Below, one piece after another: positions 39,969 through 50,326 of a stretch of DNA of 64,000 nucleotides (position 1 is the first letter of the stretch; each line of letters opens with the position of its first letter). Origin of the DNA: Actinomycetota bacterium (lineage in GTDB: Bacteria > Margulisbacteria > Marinamargulisbacteria > GCA-2716485 > GCA-002719695); the NCBI GenBank assembly GCA_002697535.1, contig NZWE01000008.1:5796-69795 (forward strand). The letters run 5' to 3'. The notes beneath the pieces were generated by a model. The model was given only the letters and a program-made list of their open reading frames with translations, made no database searches and was not told the origin of the DNA. A program made the translations under genes and the position numbers.

Positions 39969-40595
39969 TTAAAAATCAAAGTTTTCAACTTCAGTTTCTT
40001 GCTCTTGATTTGTCTCTGCTTGCTTTTTTTCTTCTTCAATCTCTTCTGCTGTTTTTAATACAATCAAATCAAATAATCGTTTAAATATACGTTCAGCCAT
40101 CGGCGTAGCTTCTACTTTACATGTTTGATACGCTGCTATTTTTTCGTCTGCCATATGTTCTTGGATAGCGTTTCCCAATTCTTCTTCAACATATTTAAAG
40201 AAAAATGCAATCATCTGGTTTTCTTGAGAACTCAAATGTGATGCTATGGTTTCTAATGACCGATAATTTTCCGGAAAGAGCTTCTCTTCTGGGATCACTT
40301 CTTCTTCCTCAGGTTCTTCTTCTCTATCTTCCATTTCTTCTTCTTTTTCTTCTTCTTCTTCTGAAAATAAATCGTCTTCACCACTATCTGATATTTCAAA
40401 TTCTTTTTCGCTAACTCCTTCTAATACTAATGTTAAAAACTCTCCCATTTCTTCATCATTAATCGTTGGTACATCATCTAAAGTTGAGGTTAATATGGTA
40501 GCACTTTCCTCTGATAAATGTTTTAAAACATCCGTACTCTTTTCTTCAATTAAACTAATTAATAATTGAGATTTTTGCTTTCCTGTTAAGTTCAT
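39969..40595 (-). CDS. FliG-like protein, truncated (N-terminal domain plus an acidic insert; no C-terminal torque domain)
   Basis: LTGKQKSQLLISLIEEKSTDVLKHLSEE matches the FliG N-domain signature (LTGxEKAAILLxxLGEExAAxVxKxL). Followed by an E-rich tract (EEEEEKEEEMEDREEEPEEEE). Total 208 aa, compared with about 330 for FliG. Start overlaps the fliF stop. Confidence 0.6.
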   Translation of the reverse strand: MNLTGKQKSQLLISLIEEKSTDVLKHLSEESATILTSTLDDVPTINDEEMGEFLTLVLEGVSEKEFEISDSGEDDLFSEEEEEKEEEMEDREEEPEEEEVIPEEKLFPENYRSLETIASHLSSQENQMIAFFFKYVEEELGNAIQEHMADEKIAAYQTCKVEATPMAERIFKRLFDLIVLKTAEEIEEEKKQAETNQEQETEVENFDF

Positions 40596-42220
40596 GATGC
40601 AACCTCTTCTAGCACAAAATCTTCTTCTAATTCAGTTTGAGCTTCTTCAGTTTGCTCATTGCTATCGTCCTCTTTTTCCTTTAACCAATCTTCCATAATA
40701 GCCGCTAATTTTTCTGGAAATTCGACTGCTAATTCTCTTAATTTCTCTAATTTTGTATCATTATCAAGATCTTCGTCTTCTTCTAAATCACCATCATCCA
40801 GATTATCAAATTCATCTTCATTGATATTTTCAACAACTTTATTTTCTTCACGTCGTGCTTTTCGTATAAATCGTATTACAAATATAATGATGGCAATACC
40901 CACTATAATGCTTGCTGCTAACAAAAGATAATCTAATAATCCTTGTCTAGTATGCTTGGCTATTAATGCTTTTTTCTCGCTCTCTGTATAAATAGGAAAC
41001 TCAGCAATACTTAATTGTATGGAATCTCTACCTCTGATATACCCTACTGATCCAGCTACTGTTTGAAATACCTGCTGCTTAAAGGCTTTATCTACAAAAA
41101 TATCATCATTTAATCCATCAATTACAATACTTATGGTTTGTCTTTTTATATCAACTATATTTCCATTTTCAAGTGGTCCTAAATCTGATGTTACCTCAAC
41201 TTTAAACGATGCAATTGGCATAATTCCAAATAATTGTTTTTCTACTTTTTGTTTTAACGTATTCTCAAAATTCCACTTTATTTCAAACCATTCTTGTATA
41301 CGATCATAATTAGGGATTATAGGACTTCCCATTGCCTCTTCTCGACTAATGGCTGCTAAAATAGGGGCTCGGCTTTTTTCTTCTGCTACATATGTTCCGG
41401 CTCGTTTTGATGCTAATCTTTCAAAAAGACTATCCGATAATAGATTTCCCTCTGTATCAATAACGGATACATTTTCTACTTGCAAATTTTCAACTGCATT
41501 TGACACTAATTGAATAATACTAAAGACAATTTCATCCGTTATCTCACTTCCTTGAATAATTCGTATAATAATCGATGATGTCACAGGCGGTTGAGTTACT
41601 GTAAATAAACGCTGTTCTGGTAATACAATTTGTACTTTTGCTGATTCAATAATATCTAATTGTGTAATTGCTTTTTCTAATTCGCCTGACAAGGCTCTTA
41701 AAAACCGAATCCGTTTATCAAATTCTGTTACGCCTAAGGTTTGAGCATCATCTAATAATTCATACCCACTCTTTGCTTTTCCTGATGGAATTCCTTTAAT
41801 GGCCAACAAATTTCTTGCTAGTTCCGCTTCATCTTCTGCTACTAAAATTGTAAATTTTTGACCATTTTGTTCGGTTTTAAATTGTATTTCTGCTAAACTA
41901 ATTTCTTTTAAAATTTTGCTCGTATCGCCACCATCTAACTGACTAAATAATTTTACATACTTTATTTTTTTTCTACTTTTCTTACTTTTATCTACTTTAT
42001 TTTTTGATACCATTATATTTTTGTTACTATGCTTACTAACGGATTTATTTGACTCATTACCTCTTCCTAACATTGTTAGCAATATCACAATAATAATAAC
42101 GCCTGCTATTAATCCCCCAATAATGAATTGTCTATTTGACTGTTTTGGAGGCAATGGCTCTGGTTGGGAAACTGGTTCCTCTAATGTGGGTTCTTCTTGA
42201 ATTATTTCTTCTTCAGCCAT
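40592..42220 (-). CDS. fliF: flagellar MS-ring protein FliF
   Basis: N-terminal TM helix, YscJ/FliF-type periplasmic domains (YVKLFSQLDGGDTSKILKEIS ... ILVAEDEAELARNLLAIKGIP), a second TM helix and an acidic C-terminal FliG-binding tail. Confidence 0.9.
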   Translation of the reverse strand: MAEEEIIQEEPTLEEPVSQPEPLPPKQSNRQFIIGGLIAGVIIIVILLTMLGRGNESNKSVSKHSNKNIMVSKNKVDKSKKSRKKIKYVKLFSQLDGGDTSKILKEISLAEIQFKTEQNGQKFTILVAEDEAELARNLLAIKGIPSGKAKSGYELLDDAQTLGVTEFDKRIRFLRALSGELEKAITQLDIIESAKVQIVLPEQRLFTVTQPPVTSSIIIRIIQGSEITDEIVFSIIQLVSNAVENLQVENVSVIDTEGNLLSDSLFERLASKRAGTYVAEEKSRAPILAAISREEAMGSPIIPNYDRIQEWFEIKWNFENTLKQKVEKQLFGIMPIASFKVEVTSDLGPLENGNIVDIKRQTISIVIDGLNDDIFVDKAFKQQVFQTVAGSVGYIRGRDSIQLSIAEFPIYTESEKKALIAKHTRQGLLDYLLLAASIIVGIAIIIFVIRFIRKARREENKVVENINEDEFDNLDDGDLEEDEDLDNDTKLEKLRELAVEFPEKLAAIMEDWLKEKEDDSNEQTEEAQTELEEDFVLEEVAS

Positions 42221-42309: not shown

Positions 42310-42873
42310 TTAAATAGCTAACTGCGTTATTTCTTTAAATGTTTGCGTAGCAGATGATAAAACGGTTGTTGCAAATGATACGGCTAAATTTAACTTCATT
42401 GTCTCAACACTCACTTCATCTAACGAAACTTTTCCTTCAATATATTGCTCTGTTAAATCATTTACTCGATATTCCATTGTACTAATACTTTCTAGCACCT
42501 CTATTGATTTATCTAATAACATTTGAAATGGTGTTACTTCTACACGATTCGTACTCAGATAAACATTTTCATCATCTTGTCCTTGAACATTTTGACGTCT
42601 ATTTTGATTATTTTGAACTTCACGAAATATGTTTTCTATTTCTTCCGGTGCTAATGCCTGCGCTAACAGCTCTCTATTTTCTTCTTCTGATACAATTCTT
42701 GGTTTTTGATTAAAGTTATAATCAATTCCATCGACATCATTTGGATTAACCCCATTTAATGCTTCATCAAAAAAGTTTTGAAATGGTACCTTTGGCATCA
42801 TTTCTTTATTAACAGCATTTGCCTTTTGAGGTTTCATTTGCATCATATCCAAAGGGTCTAATTTCTTATTCAT
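42310..42873 (-). CDS. fliE: FliE-like basal-body protein with a long N-terminal extension
   Basis: The C-terminal 75 aa (…FQMLLDKSIEVL…VSVETMKLNLAVSFATTVLSSATQTFKEITQLAI) align to the FliE pattern. At 187 aa it is much longer than the usual ~100. Canonical position after flgC. Confidence 0.65.
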   Translation of the reverse strand: MNKKLDPLDMMQMKPQKANAVNKEMMPKVPFQNFFDEALNGVNPNDVDGIDYNFNQKPRIVSEEENRELLAQALAPEEIENIFREVQNNQNRRQNVQGQDDENVYLSTNRVEVTPFQMLLDKSIEVLESISTMEYRVNDLTEQYIEGKVSLDEVSVETMKLNLAVSFATTVLSSATQTFKEITQLAI

Positions 42874-43319
42874 TTTAATAATTCCATTGTAGACTGGTAC
42901 ATCGCTTTTGTCAGTTTAAATGCATTAATATTTGCTTCATACATAGCCTCTGTGTGCTTTAGTGTTACCATTTCATTTGGCATATTAACATTCGGCAAAT
43001 AAAAATATCCATCTTCATCGGACTGTGGCGCCGCTGGATCAAAGTATCGACTAAATGGCTCTGTACTTCGTTCAATATCAACTACCTTTACACCAATATC
43101 GGAGGCTTCTAATACTAAATATTTTTTTTGGTAGGGCAATCCTGTTTCTTCATCTTTTAAAGTCATTAAGTTGGCAACATTTTCTGCCGTCATTGTCATT
43201 TTCATCCGCTGAGAAACAATACCACTCATATTGATCTGGAATGCATCTTCTAATGTACTTAACTGTGCGGCTATTGGTGATAGTAATATTAAACTGATAA
43301 TGATTACTTTAATCAACAT
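42870..43319 (-). CDS. flgC: flagellar proximal rod protein FlgC (with a hydrophobic N-terminal extension)
   Basis: QINMSGIVSQRMKMTMTAENVANLMT (rod N-motif) and C-terminal VNMPNEMVTLKHTEAMYEANINAFK. ATG at 43319, 2 nt after the flgB TAG (the track start is a GTG at 43322). Confidence 0.85.
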   Translation of the reverse strand: MLIKVIIISLILLSPIAAQLSTLEDAFQINMSGIVSQRMKMTMTAENVANLMTLKDEETGLPYQKKYLVLEASDIGVKVVDIERSTEPFSRYFDPAAPQSDEDGYFYLPNVNMPNEMVTLKHTEAMYEANINAFKLTKAMYQSTMELLK

Positions 43320-43321
43320 CA

Positions 43322-43708
43322 CTAGCGTTTTCCCATTGTAGCTATCTGCCGATAGGTATCAAACCGTTTTTTATATAACGTCAAGTAACTTGCTTGTAAA
43401 TTTCTGTTTTTTGCCATGCTCGCTGACATATGCTCTAATAATACTTTTTTTCTTAACTCACTATTATTTGGAATAATTTGATTTAATTCTTCCTGGTCTT
43501 CTGGATACAGAACCGGCTCAAAGCCAGGAGTGGTAATATTAGCAATATTATACGAAAAAAGCGCATGCTTTTTTGTTGCTTTATAAATTGCTTTTTCTAA
43601 TTTTTGATCAGCTGGATACAATGCCAATTTACCTTCATTTTGCTGTGCCCATATCGATCCACTTAAATATATAAGTATACTTATGGCTATTAATTGATAT
43701 TTATTCAT
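43322..43708 (-). CDS. flgB: flagellar proximal rod protein FlgB (with a hydrophobic N-terminal extension)
   Basis: Rod motif SYNIANITTPGFEP. Position upstream of flgC. ATG overlaps the fliA stop by 8 nt. Confidence 0.8.
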   Translation of the reverse strand: MNKYQLIAISILIYLSGSIWAQQNEGKLALYPADQKLEKAIYKATKKHALFSYNIANITTPGFEPVLYPEDQEELNQIIPNNSELRKKVLLEHMSASMAKNRNLQASYLTLYKKRFDTYRQIATMGKR

Positions 43709-44423
43709 TCTGTTTCAATCCTTCTAATCGATGTTTTAATCTATCTAAAACATTCATATGAATACGACATATTCGACTTTTAGATAACTTTAAATGCTTA
43801 GCAATTTCTACTTGCTTAAGTCCATGTATATAAAATAATTCTATAACATCTTTGTCGGGATGTTCTAGATCATAAATCTCTTTCCATAAAAAATCATAAT
43901 TTTCATCCACAACTTCTATCTCAGGGTCTTTTGTTCCTTTACTTTCAGATATATTTTGCTTCATATCGCCTGATATATAATGAACAAACGTCGCTGATTC
44001 AACTGCCTCATTAACCTTTTCTTTAGGCTTACTATTAGACTCATTTATAGTATCTTCGATAAACTCTGATAATGTTTCTTGTAATTTTTTTCTTCTGTCA
44101 CGGTACTCTTGAGGAATTCGTGAATTCCATTCATTACGAATTGAATCCAATATTTCACCTCTAATACGATAATAAGCATAGGTTTGAAATTTAGTTTTCA
44201 AGTCTTTCTTAAACCCTTTTTTAGCTTTTAATAATCCTTCAACTCCCCAACTAATTAAATCTCCATAATCAATACAACTAGGAACTTTCCCTGCATGTAA
44301 AATTTTTGATGCAATGTTTTTTATTAATGGCATATGCTCATTAATAAACTCTTCAGAATGCCCTCTATCTTTTCGAGCATCATTATATTGTAGTTTAGTT
44401 ATATCAACGTTTTTCTTTGACAT
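43701..44423 (-). CDS. fliA: RNA polymerase sigma factor, FliA/sigma-28 family
   Basis: Region 2 FQTYAYYRIRGEILDSIR and region 4 HTH LKQVEIAKHLKLSKSRICRIHMNVLDRLK. Embedded in the flagellar operon. Confidence 0.8.
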   Translation of the reverse strand: MSKKNVDITKLQYNDARKDRGHSEEFINEHMPLIKNIASKILHAGKVPSCIDYGDLISWGVEGLLKAKKGFKKDLKTKFQTYAYYRIRGEILDSIRNEWNSRIPQEYRDRRKKLQETLSEFIEDTINESNSKPKEKVNEAVESATFVHYISGDMKQNISESKGTKDPEIEVVDENYDFLWKEIYDLEHPDKDVIELFYIHGLKQVEIAKHLKLSKSRICRIHMNVLDRLKHRLEGLKQNE

Positions 44424-44426
44424 TTT

Positions 44427-44759
44427 TTATTCCCTAAAATATTCATCTAAGTTTAATAAATCTTGATCTGCTAAATATTTAGATAGTTGCCTTGCATAAA
44501 TTACATTCATTAATTCATTTGATTGTTTTGTATCATAAATGGCATCCTCTTCAATTTCAATAACACTTGTTGATTTAAATAACGGTTGTACAAATATTTG
44601 TTGAATAAATAATGCTTGCATTTTTTTCATAGCATCTTCCTCACTGCCAATTTCATAATTTGGATTTAATAACTGATAATAACTCATATCAGGCATCTGT
44701 CCTACTACACTAGCTGTGAATATTAACATCAAACTTATTATATAAAAAATTGTCTTCAT
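44427..44759 (-). CDS. rod-binding protein (FlgJ N-terminal-domain-like)
   Basis: 110 aa located directly after flgI. AMKKMQALFIQQIFVQPLFK ... MNVIYARQLSKYLA resembles the Rod_binding domain. There is no muramidase domain. Confidence 0.45.
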   Translation of the reverse strand: MKTIFYIISLMLIFTASVVGQMPDMSYYQLLNPNYEIGSEEDAMKKMQALFIQQIFVQPLFKSTSVIEIEEDAIYDTKQSNELMNVIYARQLSKYLADQDLLNLDEYFRE

Positions 44760-45826
44760 AATATTTCTAAATCAGCTACAAGAGCTCCTGACTCTTTTAA
44801 TGCTTGGATAATATTAATTAATTCTTTAGGTGTTACACCTATTTGGTTTAATGAATTCACTAAATTTGATAAGGTATCAGCTGCCTCTAAATAAACTAAC
44901 GGTTTTTTTGATTCATTTATTGTAATAGGATCTTCTTGTGCCCCAAATAACCCTCCGGCATCATTATTAATTTTTATTGAAACGCCTCCATGAGTAATTG
45001 CAACAGGAAATAATTTAACATTTTCTCCAATAATGATCGTTCCTGTTTTTGAATTCACAACAATTCGTGATGATACATCAGGTGTAATTTCTATATTCTC
45101 AATTTCAGATATAGCTGTTATTAAATCGGAAGACTTTAAATCTTCTAATGGAATTTTAATGGTATTGCCATCTATTGCTTTGGCGCCCTTATAGCCTTTC
45201 TCTTGTAATGCTTTCATCGCTTTTGCTACTGTAAAGAAATTTGGTCTATCTAAAACCATTGTAATATTATGTTGATCTGTAAACGTTACTGGCACCTCAG
45301 CTTCTACTATAGCTCCATTTGGTATTGAGCCTACCGTTGCTTGATTTCTATAAAGCTGTGTTGTCGCAGATACTTCACTTGCTCCATCAATGACTATATT
45401 TCCTTGCGCTACAGCATATGTTTTCATGTCAGGTCCCATCATTGGGGTCATAATTAATGTTCCCCCAATCAAAGAACTTGCATCTCCTAATGCTGATACC
45501 GTTACTGATATACGTTGACCCTTTTTTAAAAATGATGGTAAATTGGCTGTTACTAAAACAGAGGCTGCATTTCTAGCATTTAAATTTACGCCACTTATTG
45601 AAACTCCCATTTTTGATAATAAGTTTCTTAAAGCATTATTTGTTAAACCGGCAGCTCTAGAATCACCACTTCCTCTTAGCCCCACAACAATCCCATACCC
45701 TGCCAATTGATTGTCTCTTGATTCAATTAATTTCCCAATATCTTTTAATCGTACAGTATTAGACTGAGAATAAGATAGACTCCCTAACAAACTTAACATT
45801 ATTAAAATAGATGTTAAAATTTTCAT
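44756..45826 (-). CDS. flgI: flagellar P-ring protein FlgI
   Basis: Signal peptide followed by RLKDIGKLIESRDNQLAGYGIVVGLRGSGDS, with FlgI-like sequence conserved along the full length. Confidence 0.95.
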   Translation of the reverse strand: MKILTSILIMLSLLGSLSYSQSNTVRLKDIGKLIESRDNQLAGYGIVVGLRGSGDSRAAGLTNNALRNLLSKMGVSISGVNLNARNAASVLVTANLPSFLKKGQRISVTVSALGDASSLIGGTLIMTPMMGPDMKTYAVAQGNIVIDGASEVSATTQLYRNQATVGSIPNGAIVEAEVPVTFTDQHNITMVLDRPNFFTVAKAMKALQEKGYKGAKAIDGNTIKIPLEDLKSSDLITAISEIENIEITPDVSSRIVVNSKTGTIIIGENVKLFPVAITHGGVSIKINNDAGGLFGAQEDPITINESKKPLVYLEAADTLSNLVNSLNQIGVTPKELINIIQALKESGALVADLEIL

Positions 45827-45827
45827 A

Positions 45828-46436
45828 CTAAAACAACCAATTAAATACTTTCGTCATAATACCAGGAGATTGCTTTGAAGCTACTACCCCACTTCCATGT
45901 ACTGAAATTTCAGCTTTAGCAACTTGATATGAATAGACTGAATTCTTTGGAGAAATATCTTGAGGCCGAATAACACCTGCTACTCGAATTGTCTCCAACT
46001 CATCATTGACTTTTACTTTATGAATTCCTTCAACATATAAATTTCCATTATCTAATATTTCAGTGACTACTGATGAAACGACCGCCTTAACCTGACTTCT
46101 ACGCGAGGTTTGTCCCGATCCTTCATACTTATCATCACCATTTAACCCATATTGTCTTTTTTGATTTAACGTTTCATTTCCTAATAAATTTCCTACTTGC
46201 TCCCAATTATTTTGAATTGAAGCGCCTAACCGCGATTCTCTTTCTGTACTGGTTGATGCTTGCTGTGCCGCTGATGTTGATTCTGACACATAAATCGTAA
46301 TGATATCACCAACTCGGATTAGCCGTCTGTTAACACCATAAAACGGTGTTTTCGCATTATCAAATAACGAATCTGCGACAACCTCCATAGGCCATAGCAA
46401 ACTAATTAGAACTAATAAGAATATGTTTTTTATCAA
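45828..46436 (-). CDS. flgH: flagellar L-ring protein FlgH
   Basis: SLFDN ... RVGDIITIYVSESTSA ... LYVEGIHKVKVNDELETIRVAGVIRPQDI, typical FlgH. The signal peptide has no lipobox Cys. Confidence 0.9.
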   Translation of the reverse strand: MIKNIFLLVLISLLWPMEVVADSLFDNAKTPFYGVNRRLIRVGDIITIYVSESTSAAQQASTSTERESRLGASIQNNWEQVGNLLGNETLNQKRQYGLNGDDKYEGSGQTSRRSQVKAVVSSVVTEILDNGNLYVEGIHKVKVNDELETIRVAGVIRPQDISPKNSVYSYQVAKAEISVHGSGVVASKQSPGIMTKVFNWLF

Positions 46437-47121
46437 TTACTTTTCCTCTTAATATTTTTTTTGTTTCTGTCTTCATTCGAATCATATCACCTATCATCCC
46501 TGAATCTAATGCTGTAACATCCGATTTAATCTCAAAGCCTGATGATTTGATAACTAATTTTACATGTTCTCCTTTTTGCACATCAGGAACAAGTTCAATC
46601 CATCGATCTGAAAATGCAATTCCTTTTATCATCGATCGTTTTGTTTGCTTTCCTATAATAATATCTTTATTAAAAATATAATCTTCGGATCGTGATGTTA
46701 ACTTAATTCTTTTTTGAGTAATATCATTATTAGAAATAATATCATTTGTTTTTATTTTTCTATTAGATACATAAACATCTCCATAGACGCTGGTTTCTAA
46801 AGCACATTTTTCTGTTTTAATAATTGTATTTTCTTCTGATAAAAATGCCGTATCTAATATAATCTTTCCCATTAAGGTTTGTGGTTTTGCTAAATCTACA
46901 AAGATATAAAAGACATCTTTAGAAATATCATTAAAAATTTCTGAGTTTTTTATCTCGACATTCACGTCTGGATTTTTTACATCTCCCATTTGTCCTAGTA
47001 TTTGATTTTCAATTTCAGTCTCTAATATTGTACTAGAAAAATTAGCAACACTATATTGCTTTGCAGATAGATTAACTGAAAAAAATACTGCTAATAAAAT
47101 TACCCAAAACACTCTCAACAT
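46402..47121 (-). CDS. flgA: flagellar P-ring assembly chaperone FlgA
   Basis: Signal peptide and a C-terminal SAF/FlgA pattern GEHVKLVIKSSGFEIKSDVTALDSGMIGDMIRMK. Position between flgG and flgH. Confidence 0.75.
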   Translation of the reverse strand: MLRVFWVILLAVFFSVNLSAKQYSVANFSSTILETEIENQILGQMGDVKNPDVNVEIKNSEIFNDISKDVFYIFVDLAKPQTLMGKIILDTAFLSEENTIIKTEKCALETSVYGDVYVSNRKIKTNDIISNNDITQKRIKLTSRSEDYIFNKDIIIGKQTKRSMIKGIAFSDRWIELVPDVQKGEHVKLVIKSSGFEIKSDVTALDSGMIGDMIRMKTETKKILRGKVIDKKHILISSN

Positions 47122-47124
47122 TAT

Positions 47125-47928
47125 TTATTTTCCTATATCACTCGCTGCCTTTAACATTGCATCTGCTGATTTAATGGTCGAGTTTACTAACTCAAATGTT
47201 CGCTGACATAACAACATATTCATCATTTCTTCAATGATATTAACATTTGAAAACTCTAATGCTCTTTGCTTTACCATCCCAACACCATTTTCACCAGGAA
47301 TTGTTAACTCTGGATCGCCTGATGCAGCTGTTGCTCTAAATAAATTTTGACCAACGTCTTTTAATCCTCCTGCATTTGGAAAATTCACTAAATAAACCTG
47401 ACCTATTTCTGTTGGCTGGACAGTATTTGCTGTTTGAGCAAACACCTCACCTGCTTCATTAATAATAATTTCAGTCGTATTAGCTGGTATTGTAATAGCT
47501 GGATCAAGTGGATGCCCATTTGGATTTAATACATTACCTTCTGCATCTGCATGCAGGTTTCCAGCCCTACTAAACCCATAGGTTCCATCTGGCATTAAAA
47601 ATTGTAAAAATCCTTTTCCTTCTATAGCAACATCCAGTTGTTGATTTGTCATTTCAATTGATCCGGTTGTAAAGTCTTTTGTTACATCAACAATACGTAT
47701 TCCTTGACCATACTCTAAGTATTTCTTACGTTTTCGTCCTGCACCCGGTGATACCTCATCAAACTCTGAATAGGCTCTTTCTAATACTAATGGAAATAAA
47801 CTCTCCATTTCCATACGCTTCTTTTTATATCCAACCGTTTGCGCATTCGCAATATTGTTTGCAATAACCTGCATTTTTCTTTCATAAGAAAAATATGCTG
47901 ATTTTGCCATAAATAACTGTGATAACAT
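47125..47928 (-). CDS. flgG: flagellar distal rod protein FlgG
   Basis: N-terminus MQVIANNIANAQTVGYKK and C-terminus LEFSNVNIIEEMMNMLLCQRTFELVNSTIKSAD. The N-terminus is canonical, with no hydrophobic extension. Confidence 0.9.
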   Translation of the reverse strand: MLSQLFMAKSAYFSYERKMQVIANNIANAQTVGYKKKRMEMESLFPLVLERAYSEFDEVSPGAGRKRKKYLEYGQGIRIVDVTKDFTTGSIEMTNQQLDVAIEGKGFLQFLMPDGTYGFSRAGNLHADAEGNVLNPNGHPLDPAITIPANTTEIIINEAGEVFAQTANTVQPTEIGQVYLVNFPNAGGLKDVGQNLFRATAASGDPELTIPGENGVGMVKQRALEFSNVNIIEEMMNMLLCQRTFELVNSTIKSADAMLKAASDIGK

Positions 47929-47951
47929 GTTGCTTTCCTCCTTTTATGTTT

Positions 47952-48773
47952 TTATGGACTCGATAATGTTGCCGCTGTATTTAACGCTCTATTCATTAAA
48001 TGAGCTGTTTTAACACTGGCATCATATGCATTTTTTGCCATTAATATATCCCCAGTAATCCCCTTTAAGACATTATTTTGCTCTAAAGCTCCCTGAACAA
48101 CCGCATAATGCTCTGGGCCTTCTTCTACGGGAACATCTTTTGTCAAAATAAAATAAGATCCATTTAATGATTCAAAGGACTGCATTGCCGCAAATGTTTT
48201 GAATACTACAATTTTCATACTTGAAACAGGCTGTCCATCAACATAAATAAGCCCTGATCGTGATACTAATATATCTTCACCTTCCGGCAAAATTATTTCA
48301 CCTTCTTCTCCTAATACTGGATAATTACCTGATAATGTTACCAATCTTCTCTTTGAATCTAATAAAAAACGGCCATCTCTTGTAAATGCAATCGTACCTG
48401 GTAACTGCACCACAAAAAAACCTCTACTATTAGCATCAATATAAAAATCTAGCTCTTTATTGGTTTCAATCATCGGACCAGCTCTCCATCTAAAAAAAGG
48501 CAAATAATCTAAATCATAGCCGTCTTCTGTCTTTTTTCTAGAATTATAAACACCTGTCTCAATAAATCCTGGCGTTCCAACATTTATCGTATAAAACATA
48601 AAGTTTGTATAATGCACCTGAAACATTCTCATAGCTTCCAATGTTGTTGACACTCCTTCATCTTGCACCTCACCAAAATTGGTATATCCATATAATGATG
48701 ATGTAACACTTAAAATCATTAGTAATATACCCATCGTGACATTTCTATAAACATTAAGTTGTTTTTTTATCAT
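47952..48773 (-). CDS. flgF: flagellar rod protein, FlgF-like (with a hydrophobic N-terminal extension)
   Basis: Rod motif TINVGTPGF and C-terminus VVQGALEQNNV ... AKNAYDASVKTAHLMN. Upstream of flgG. Confidence 0.7.
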   Translation of the reverse strand: MIKKQLNVYRNVTMGILLMILSVTSSLYGYTNFGEVQDEGVSTTLEAMRMFQVHYTNFMFYTINVGTPGFIETGVYNSRKKTEDGYDLDYLPFFRWRAGPMIETNKELDFYIDANSRGFFVVQLPGTIAFTRDGRFLLDSKRRLVTLSGNYPVLGEEGEIILPEGEDILVSRSGLIYVDGQPVSSMKIVVFKTFAAMQSFESLNGSYFILTKDVPVEEGPEHYAVVQGALEQNNVLKGITGDILMAKNAYDASVKTAHLMNRALNTAATLSSP

Positions 48774-49135
48774 TTTCTCTTCTTTCTTTTTAATTTTTTC
48801 TTTTTTGCCAGTCTATCTAATCGATACACAAACGATAATACTTCTGCCACCATATTATATAAATTAGGCGGTATTTCAGAATTTATAGCTAACTTTGATA
48901 ACAACTCCACTAAAGAAGAATCTTCATAAAATGGAACCTTATTATCTTCGGCAACCTTAAGTATCTTTTCCGCAATTTGACCTTTTCCAAACCCTGTAAT
49001 TTTTGGTGCCTTACTATTTTTCGAATCATACTTTAAAGCAATAGCTTTTAAATTATGCTTATTTTTAACATCAAGTTGATGTATATTTCGTTTTAATTTT
49101 ATATTTTTTGGCTTATCACTTTTTTTTGCATTCAT
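48770..49135 (-). CDS. stand-alone FlhB C-terminal-domain protein (YlqH / EscU-YscU-HrcU family fragment)
   Basis: AIALKYDSKNSKAPKITGFGKGQIAEKILKVAEDNKVPFYEDSSLVELL ... VAEVLSFVYRL aligns to the part of FlhB_C after the NPTH cleavage site. No TM domain. Confidence 0.75.
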   Translation of the reverse strand: MNAKKSDKPKNIKLKRNIHQLDVKNKHNLKAIALKYDSKNSKAPKITGFGKGQIAEKILKVAEDNKVPFYEDSSLVELLSKLAINSEIPPNLYNMVAEVLSFVYRLDRLAKKKKLKRKKRK

Positions 49136-49138
49136 AGT

Positions 49139-50326
49139 TTATACTTCCGTACTAATTCGTTTCATATTATTTAAATTAAATGTTGGTAATAATAACTTTT
49201 CGATATTGATGATCTTTTTTAATGATTGCACTTGAGTTACTTCATAATTTAATTCTTCCATAGATTTTTTTAGTTCAGGAACTTCATCTAAAACAAATTT
49301 TTGAGTCAATTCATTACTGCTATAAATCTTATATGCCATTTTTTTATCATTAATTTCAATAATGATCGTTAAGTCCCCTAAATCTGATGTTTCACACTTA
49401 ATCACAATTGTTGTGTTATTAGGATTTACTTTTCTCTTATTCTTAGGATCCTTACTTACCATAACCTCAATATCTTTCAATGCTTTTGCCATAGGATTTG
49501 GAATCATCCAATAATGAAAAAACTCCTCCGAAATTTGTTGATTTGAAGGACTTTTAGATAAAATTAATTGTGTCAATAAAACATCATGAAAGGCTGACGA
49601 ATCTTTTTCAACACTTTTAATTATTTTTTTTAAATTATCGGCTATTAAGTTATTAGATGATGATAACTTTTTATTAATCCCTTTTAAAAAATCTTGTAAA
49701 TATCTTAAATCTTGCACTAAGTCAGATTGCTTGTTGATCAACCCCTTAATATCTAAATTATCAGCATGCTTTTTCATGGTCTTTGTATCTTCTAAAAAGT
49801 CATCTAAAAACCCCGCAACCCCAGCGATCAATGACGGATCTAAAAATGCGCTAAAACCAGGCAATCCATTTTTTAATCCCTGCAACCCCTGAGACAATCT
49901 TGATAAACTTCCTGATAACTGAACATTATGCGATAAAAACTTTGAAATCAAATCCACAGCCTTAGCATTACCATCAAGTCCTTTTGAATAAGCAACGACA
50001 CTTGCCTCCAACTTGTTCCCCTTCTTACTCCCCTTAACCGCCTGCTCTATTAAATCAAAGGCTTCTGGAGATGCTTCGACTCCATACAATAACATAGTTG
50101 TTAAAATCTGCTTATTTTCAGGTGTAACCGCTTTTTGCAAATTTAATAAGGCCTGACTAATATCTTGTGAATTTAATATACGAACATACTCTGGTGTTTT
50201 TTGTAACGGCTGATCAGCACTCTTAATATTTGATTGATCACTATTTATATCCTGAATACTTTTAGGTAACGATTTTGAGTCGGTTGTCTGCTGAGGCTTA
50301 TTAACATCTCCACGTATATTTTGCAT
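49139..50326 (-). CDS. FliK-like hook-length-control-type protein (tentative)
   Basis: The C-terminal block IKCETSDLGDLTIIIEINDKKMAYKIYSSNELTQKFV...LKKSMEELNYEV resembles the Flg_hook domain (LxPxxLGxVxVxL...). Pairing with a FlhB_C-only gene is common in other genomes. Confidence 0.45.
   Translation of the reverse strand: MQNIRGDVNKPQQTTDSKSLPKSIQDINSDQSNIKSADQPLQKTPEYVRILNSQDISQALLNLQKAVTPENKQILTTMLLYGVEASPEAFDLIEQAVKGSKKGNKLEASVVAYSKGLDGNAKAVDLISKFLSHNVQLSGSLSRLSQGLQGLKNGLPGFSAFLDPSLIAGVAGFLDDFLEDTKTMKKHADNLDIKGLINKQSDLVQDLRYLQDFLKGINKKLSSSNNLIADNLKKIIKSVEKDSSAFHDVLLTQLILSKSPSNQQISEEFFHYWMIPNPMAKALKDIEVMVSKDPKNKRKVNPNNTTIVIKCETSDLGDLTIIIEINDKKMAYKIYSSNELTQKFVLDEVPELKKSMEELNYEVTQVQSLKKIINIEKLLLPTFNLNNMKRISTEV

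Follow-up and report, generated by a model that had tools for sequence, protein, structure and literature searches.

A flagellar gene cluster on the minus strand of a 64-kb stretch of marine bacterial DNA (the window, meaning the whole stretch analysed) encodes three proximal rod proteins, FlgB, FlgC and FlgF, and a protein resembling the N-terminal part of the rod cap FlgJ, all four of which begin with a predicted signal peptide for the general secretory (Sec) pathway. Comparison with related genomes indicates that predicted cleavable class I Sec signal peptides were acquired by FlgB, FlgC, FlgF and FlgJ in one clade of Margulisbacteria, comprising all Candidatus Marinamargulisbacteria sampled and the phylum families f30, f32 and f37. 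In the textbook account of rod assembly, subunits are exported in order by the flagellar type III gate, pass along the growing channel and fold under the FlgJ cap. The window is part of contig C30 in a metagenome-assembled genome of 1.57 Mb (MAG; 76% complete, ~31% guanine plus cytosine [GC]) of an uncultured marine bacterium, placed in the class Candidatus Marinamargulisbacteria, phylum Margulisiibacteriota (Cyanobacteriota/Melainabacteria group). Among public sequences, marine MAGs and Tara scaffolds are the nearest to it.

Signal peptides were called by a hand-made rule for the n-, h- and c-regions (positive n-region, hydrophobic core of 7-15 or more residues, small residues at -3 and -1), together with comparison among relatives. 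An earlier sequence-only reading had pointed out signal-like N-termini on the four proteins, and these were present as described: in each, a positive n-region precedes a hydrophobic core 10-17 residues long, which is followed by a cleavage site of small residues (A/G-x-A/G). With the predicted cleavage site marked by a slash, the signal peptide of FlgB (128 aa, 43322..43708, minus strand, as are all features below) spans residues 1-21 (MNKYQLIAISILIYLSGSIWA/QQ; 43646..43708) and is kept in 11 relatives with variable sequence. That of FlgC (150 aa, 42870..43322) spans residues 1-19 (VMLIKVIIISLILLSPIAA/QL; 43266..43322), that of FlgF (273 aa, 47952..48773) about residues 1-29 (MIKKQLNVYRNVTMGILLMILSVTSSLYG/Y; 48687..48773) and that of the FlgJ-like protein (110 aa, 44427..44759) residues 1-20 (MKTIFYIISLMLIFTASVVG/Q; 44700..44759), the last two being called on their anatomy and on relatives. 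The immediate cleavage contexts are SIWA/Q in FlgB, PIAA/Q in FlgC, SVVG/Q in FlgJ and SLYG/Y in FlgF. Elsewhere in the window the rule was positive for the known Sec substrates FlgA, FlgH and FlgI, products of the same operon whose signal peptides resemble those of the rod proteins in style, and negative for FlgG, FliE, FliA, FliK, FliF and FliG, which confirms the ordinary N-termini earlier ascribed to FlgG and FliE.

Signals of other classes were also looked for in the four N-termini. There was no Cys at the cleavage region of FlgB, FlgC, FlgF or FlgJ and no lipobox ([LVI][ASTVI][GAS]C) of the kind used by signal peptidase II, nor any RR motif of a twin-arginine (Tat) signal (S/TRRxFLK). 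A class III (prepilin-type) signal was not found either, the hydrophobic core preceding an A-x-A-type site in these proteins. From their sequences the four segments are very likely real, cleavable Sec signal peptides. Gln nearly always follows the predicted cleavage site in the class FlgB and FlgC alignments, and the N-terminal Gln of the predicted mature proteins could cyclise to pyroglutamate.

The feature was followed through ~40 genomes of the class, spanning relatives at the genus, family, order and class levels. A signal-like N-terminus was found in 32 of 39 FlgB, 37 of 40 FlgC, 10 of 13 FlgF and 11 of 16 FlgJ orthologs. The controls were the distal rod protein FlgG (47125..47928; TIGR02488), which keeps a canonical MLSQLFMAKSA start in 13 relatives, and FliE (42310..42873; Pfam FliE match at residues 112-187); the rule flagged one of 13 FlgG orthologs in the class and no FliE (0/39 in the class, 0/19 in the phylum). 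The rule has a background rate of ~20% among all open reading frames (ORFs) of at least 150 aa in the genome, and the feature goes beyond chance despite this background, because it is conserved class-wide in FlgB, FlgC, FlgF and FlgJ and flagged in so few of the FlgG and FliE controls. Mean pairwise identity among class orthologs is 27% in the signal region versus 54% in the mature region, and despite this drift every copy retains a strongly hydrophobic core behind a positive n-region. The A-Q cleavage context is almost fixed, with Q at +1 in ~90% of class FlgB. The comparison with orthologs that the sequence-only reading had proposed thus found extensions that are conserved across the class while their sequences drift. 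The lack of a signal peptide on distal FlgG and on FliE is in line with the proximal/distal division of the rod.

In sister families the gene order FlgI, FlgJ-N, FliA, FlgB, FlgC, FliE, FliF is unchanged and the N-termini are canonical, for example MGLDQALxISVSG in FlgC and a FlgJ-N carrying EFMAIFYKELLK. The canonical FlgC start of the sister lineages aligns exactly with the predicted cleavage site (the GLD column of the FlgC alignment), and FlgB and FlgJ-N also have canonical sister starts in register with their predicted cleavage sites. Since the canonical start coincides with the predicted cleavage site and the sisters lack the segment, the signal peptide is an N-terminal addition. In a quick maximum-likelihood tree of FlgC, the signal-bearing sequences fell into one large group made up of Marinamargulisbacteria and families f30, f32 and f37, with few exceptions, mostly mis-called starts; two further lineages, f36 and f38, carry a signal peptide on FlgC alone. 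On this tree the trait takes three changes in all versus a mean of 13.5 when shuffled. An artefact of AT-rich genomes was considered and ruled out by the GC content of the signal-bearing lineages, which spans 31-53% (signal-less lineages, 35-59%).

The identities of the four proteins rest on different kinds of match. FlgB matched NCBIfam TIGR01396 at E=0.0025, under the curated cut-off, and gave no match to PF00460; it carries the rod motif YNIANITTPGF at residues 53-63 and lies between fliA and flgC in the arrangement flgB-flgC-fliE, which is conserved in sister lineages. An AlphaFold2 model of FlgB (11-sequence alignment; predicted local distance difference test score 83) shows the signal peptide as an additional helix at the N-terminus, before a rod-subunit fold, and its top Foldseek matches in the PDB were Salmonella proximal rod chains (7cg0, 7bin, 8wk3 and 8z5s; probability ~1.0). 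FlgC matched TIGR01395 at E=6.7e-28, with a score slightly under the cut-off, and PDB FlgC chains at E=3e-14; its residue 26 pairs with residue 5 of Salmonella FlgC in a comparison independent of the sister-lineage alignment. FlgF matched TIGR02490 at E=1.1e-19 and carries the motif TINVGTPGF. The FlgJ-like protein matched no Pfam or NCBIfam family even at E<=10. It sits between flgI and fliA and carries FIQQIFVQPLFK, matching the EFMAIFYKELLK of signal-less sister FlgJ-N at the same position, and is named here, from position and motif, as a putative N-terminal rod-cap-like FlgJ. A FlgJ that lacks the muramidase domain and consists of the N-terminal rod-binding part alone occurs in signal-bearing and signal-less lineages alike. 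The signal-bearing FlgB and FlgC are the sole copies of these proteins found in their genomes.

The gene junctions agree with those given in the sequence-only reading. Between fliA and flgB the stop and the ATG overlap by 8 nt, and between the upstream gene for an FlhB C-domain and flgF they overlap as ATGA. For flgC, the in-frame ATG 2 nt past the flgB stop is preceded by a GTG, the start of the ORF, which shares one base with the flgB TAG. The sequence-only reading was wrong to deny FlgF any Met from the hydrophobic segment to the rod motif, as Met48, Met50 and Met59 precede the TPG at 67; a start at any of them would delete most of the canonical N-terminal helix, so they give the short form no help. 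The FlgB orthologs of L010, L013 and L017 have no ATG, GTG or TTG at residues 18-41. Because several orthologs thus lack any possible downstream start codon, the N-terminal extensions are, as read from the gene sequences, translated.

The earlier suggestion that the flagellar type III gate might be missing did not hold. Full-length FlhA, full-length FlhB and FliP were found outside the window by Pfam search, FliH and FliI lie on contig 13, and ORFs resembling FliQ and FliR, recognised from their position and sequence and not by family search, adjoin the gate genes on contig 9. The flagellar type III gate is intact in the MAG, FliJ having lain outside the search; the signal peptides are therefore not compensation for a missing gate. 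FlgD was not found in this 76%-complete genome. Export of FliE, FlgG and the hook must still depend on the flagellar gate, and a Sec route would therefore take its place solely in delivering the proximal rod and its cap.

On this basis the following route is proposed. The signal recognition particle (SRP) or SecA would target FlgB, FlgC, FlgF and FlgJ to SecYEG, cutting by signal peptidase I at the A-x-A-type site would leave each with a canonical N-terminus, and the proteins would enter the periplasm in mature form. Mature FlgB, FlgC and FlgF, with FlgJ serving in the periplasm as cap or chaperone, would then assemble on FliE inside the membrane-supramembrane (MS) ring from the periplasmic side. 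The type III gate (FlhA/FlhB/FliPQR/FliHIJ) would still export FliE, the distal rod protein FlgG, the hook and FliK, and the absence of signal peptides from FliE and FlgG is consistent with continued type III export. The split between changed FlgB, FlgC and FlgF and unchanged FlgG fits periplasmic assembly of the proximal rod. Taken as a whole, from Sec export and signal-peptidase cleavage to assembly from the periplasmic side, this route has in our judgement slightly better than even chances of being correct. Several points weigh against it. A Sec-delivered rod must reach the lumen of the MS ring from the periplasm and build in the right order on FliE, and we know of no precedent for periplasmic entry into that lumen followed by ordered assembly on FliE. 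The signal-peptide calls rest on the hand-made rule and on comparison, not on trained predictors (SignalP, DeepTMHMM). Several class members are, moreover, entirely without flagellin.

The strongest competing explanation, which we nevertheless regard as unlikely, is that the segments are translated and the proteins still leave through the type III gate, the segment acting as, or being tolerated as, an export signal with no use of Sec in vivo. A complete gate that FliE and FlgG still need, and a rod-assembly site inside the MS ring that is fed directly by that gate, are what this explanation would lead one to expect. It sits poorly with the N-termini themselves. Type III substrates normally begin with hydrophilic, disordered N-termini, whereas the conserved positive n-region and A-x-A/Q-type sites belong to Sec substrates and are foreign to flagellar export signals; so large a hydrophobic core at the N-terminus is expected to engage SRP or SecA, and the signal-like segment has been added precisely before the canonical start.

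Two further explanations are each still less probable. The first treats the segments as uncleaved signal anchors that tether FlgB, FlgC, FlgF and FlgJ to the inner membrane as a collar or platform. The hydrophobic cores on which it depends are real, but they are short (~10-17 residues), as is typical of cleavable signal peptides; conservation extends to the residues of the cleavage site, where class FlgB has an almost invariant Q at +1, and the mature N-termini align with canonical rod starts. Short cores joined to conserved A-x-A-type sites (often A/G followed by Q) argue for cleavage and not for a retained anchor. Where the sequence-only reading had offered Sec delivery or anchoring, Sec delivery is thus the better supported, by anatomy, by conservation in the clade and by cleavage sites at canonical starts, and membrane anchoring the less so. 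The second explanation, of equally low probability, is that the four proteins form a separate periplasmic rod-like structure apart from the basal body. A conserved, signal-bearing FlgF/G-like paralog outside the cluster and the absence of flagellin from most of the class speak for it; against this, the genes lie in a conserved flagellar operon with FliE, FliF, FliG, FlgG, FlgI, FlgH and FlgA, arranged as in the signal-less sisters, and no other FlgB or FlgC copies were found in those genomes.

That the extensions go untranslated, with true starts downstream such as a TTG at FlgB Leu28 or Met32 of FlgC, is very improbable: metagenome gene callers do at times choose other starts (FlgH of 186 aa versus 202) and FlgB has TTG at codons 28 and 30, but the signal region is hydrophobic and open throughout the ~40 genomes, some orthologs offer no start codon after the signal peptide, the canonical sister starts map to the cleavage site and not to Leu28 or Met32, and a start at FlgC Met32 would cut the canonical N-terminal helix. 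The downstream starts raised as a possible objection in the sequence-only reading (FlgB TTG codon 28 and FlgC Met32), and likewise FlgF Met48, Met50 and Met59, are ruled out by the startless orthologs and by the position of the sister starts. Tolerated type III export, membrane anchoring and downstream initiation are none of them favoured by the data.

Flagellin (PF00669/PF00700) was not found in the genome of the window nor in 19 of 20 near relatives. Across the phylum it was found in only 15 of 121 genomes, while almost all have FlgC, the rod and hook genes and FliK. These counts suggest that hook-basal bodies lacking flagellin, or a filament protein that has escaped recognition, occur in much of Margulisbacteria. 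A link between the signal-peptide trait and flagellin loss was considered and was not shown, flagellin being missing in signal-bearing and signal-less lineages alike. Three proteins with a MotB_plug domain (PF13677), encoded on contigs C22 and C7, are stator-like proteins present despite the absent flagellin. More tentatively than for the export route itself, and at odds somewhat below even, we propose a proximal rod of Sec-exported and processed FlgB, FlgC and FlgF, with Sec-exported FlgJ capping and guiding it and the gate reserved for FliE, the distal rod, the hook and FliK; with many lineages in which no flagellin was found, the product may be a flagellin-less envelope machine with a new assembly order.

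The cluster genes were named by ORF calling and by Pfam and NCBIfam scans of the window, and read 5' to 3' as FliK, a gene for the FlhB C-domain only, FlgF, FlgG, FlgA, FlgH, FlgI, FlgJ-N, FliA, FlgB, FlgC, FliE, FliF and FliG. The three Sec-exported ring and chaperone proteins are the P-ring protein FlgI with a canonical signal peptide (44756..45826; Pfam FlgI), the L-ring protein FlgH (45828..46436; Pfam FlgH and reading of its N-terminus) and the P-ring chaperone FlgA (46402..47121; Pfam ChapFlgA). FlgH is usually a lipoprotein, and here has a signal peptide with no lipobox Cys (LIKNIFLLVLISLLWPMEVVA/DS). In the public gene calls for Tara contigs L022-L024, FlgH has 186 aa instead of 202, with loss of the signal peptide, and FlgJ has 100 aa; annotated FlgH and FlgJ starts in metagenome databases are unreliable. 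FliA, the sigma-28 factor (43701..44423), was recognised by Sigma70 regions r2 and r4, FliK, for hook-length control (49139..50326), by a weak Pfam Flg_hook match, the MS-ring protein FliF (40592..42220) by Pfam YscJ_FliF, and the N-terminal part of FliG (39969..40595) by Pfam FliG_N. FliE is 187 aa long, its Pfam match leaving a long hydrophilic N-terminal region, compared with a typical length of ~100 aa. Directly upstream of flgF is the stand-alone FlhB C-domain protein (121 aa, 48770..49135; TIGR00789), whose gene keeps this place across the order, the full-length FlhB being encoded on contig 9. Amid housekeeping genes, outside the flagellar clusters, lies the gene for a second protein of the rod family, which resembles FlgF/FlgG and bears a Sec signal peptide (G000:C5; L046:6165-6956:-). 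In this paralog and its relatives (L106-L113) the signal peptide is conserved across the order, and a conserved DLPDDGTRE replaces the TPGF rod motif.

Compared with the canonical proximal rod (FliE, FlgB, FlgC, FlgF and the FlgJ cap, as in Salmonella enterica), the system described here has the same gene set and order, mature FlgB, FlgC and FlgF that align from the start onward, and a FliE and FlgG with no signal peptide. It differs in that all canonical rod subunits and FlgJ go through the type III gate with no Sec signal, whereas FlgB, FlgC, FlgF and FlgJ here bear Sec signals of the cleavable type. The Sec-exported FlgI, FlgH and FlgA have class I signal peptides of similar style and assemble in the periplasm around the rod, but these serve as ring or chaperone components in every flagellated diderm, while here it is rod subunits that bear Sec signals, for which we know of no precedent. 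The type III injectisome is likewise of mixed build, with some parts delivered by Sec (the secretin) and others by the type III gate (inner rod, needle). Its axial rod and needle are never Sec substrates, whereas the split proposed here puts part of the axial rod on Sec. The archaellum and the type IV pilus, in which Sec inserts the axial subunits before these polymerise across the envelope, offer an analogy of working only. Their class III signal peptides are cut on the cytoplasmic side and the hydrophobic segment is kept in the mature subunit; here the core of the class I-like signals precedes the cleavage site, and what is left after processing would be a flagellar rod subunit.

A literature search turned up neither an account of flagellar rod proteins that bear Sec signal peptides, in agreement with the sequence-only reading, which knew of no description of such an assembly route, nor a flagellar analysis of Marinamargulisbacteria. 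Genomes of this class, including the Trichoplax symbiont Ca. Ruthmannia, have been described with no discussion of flagella (PMC6349859, PMC6784892).

The gain in one branch, the canonical sisters and the clean proximal/distal split together yield testable predictions on cleavage sites, periplasmic location and assembly order. If the proposed route is true, a rod can be built from the periplasm, and rod assembly in these bacteria would be separated from the early-substrate programme of the gate. The clade would then provide a natural comparison for how FliE opens the FliPQR gate and for whether FlgJ is needed as a channel cap.

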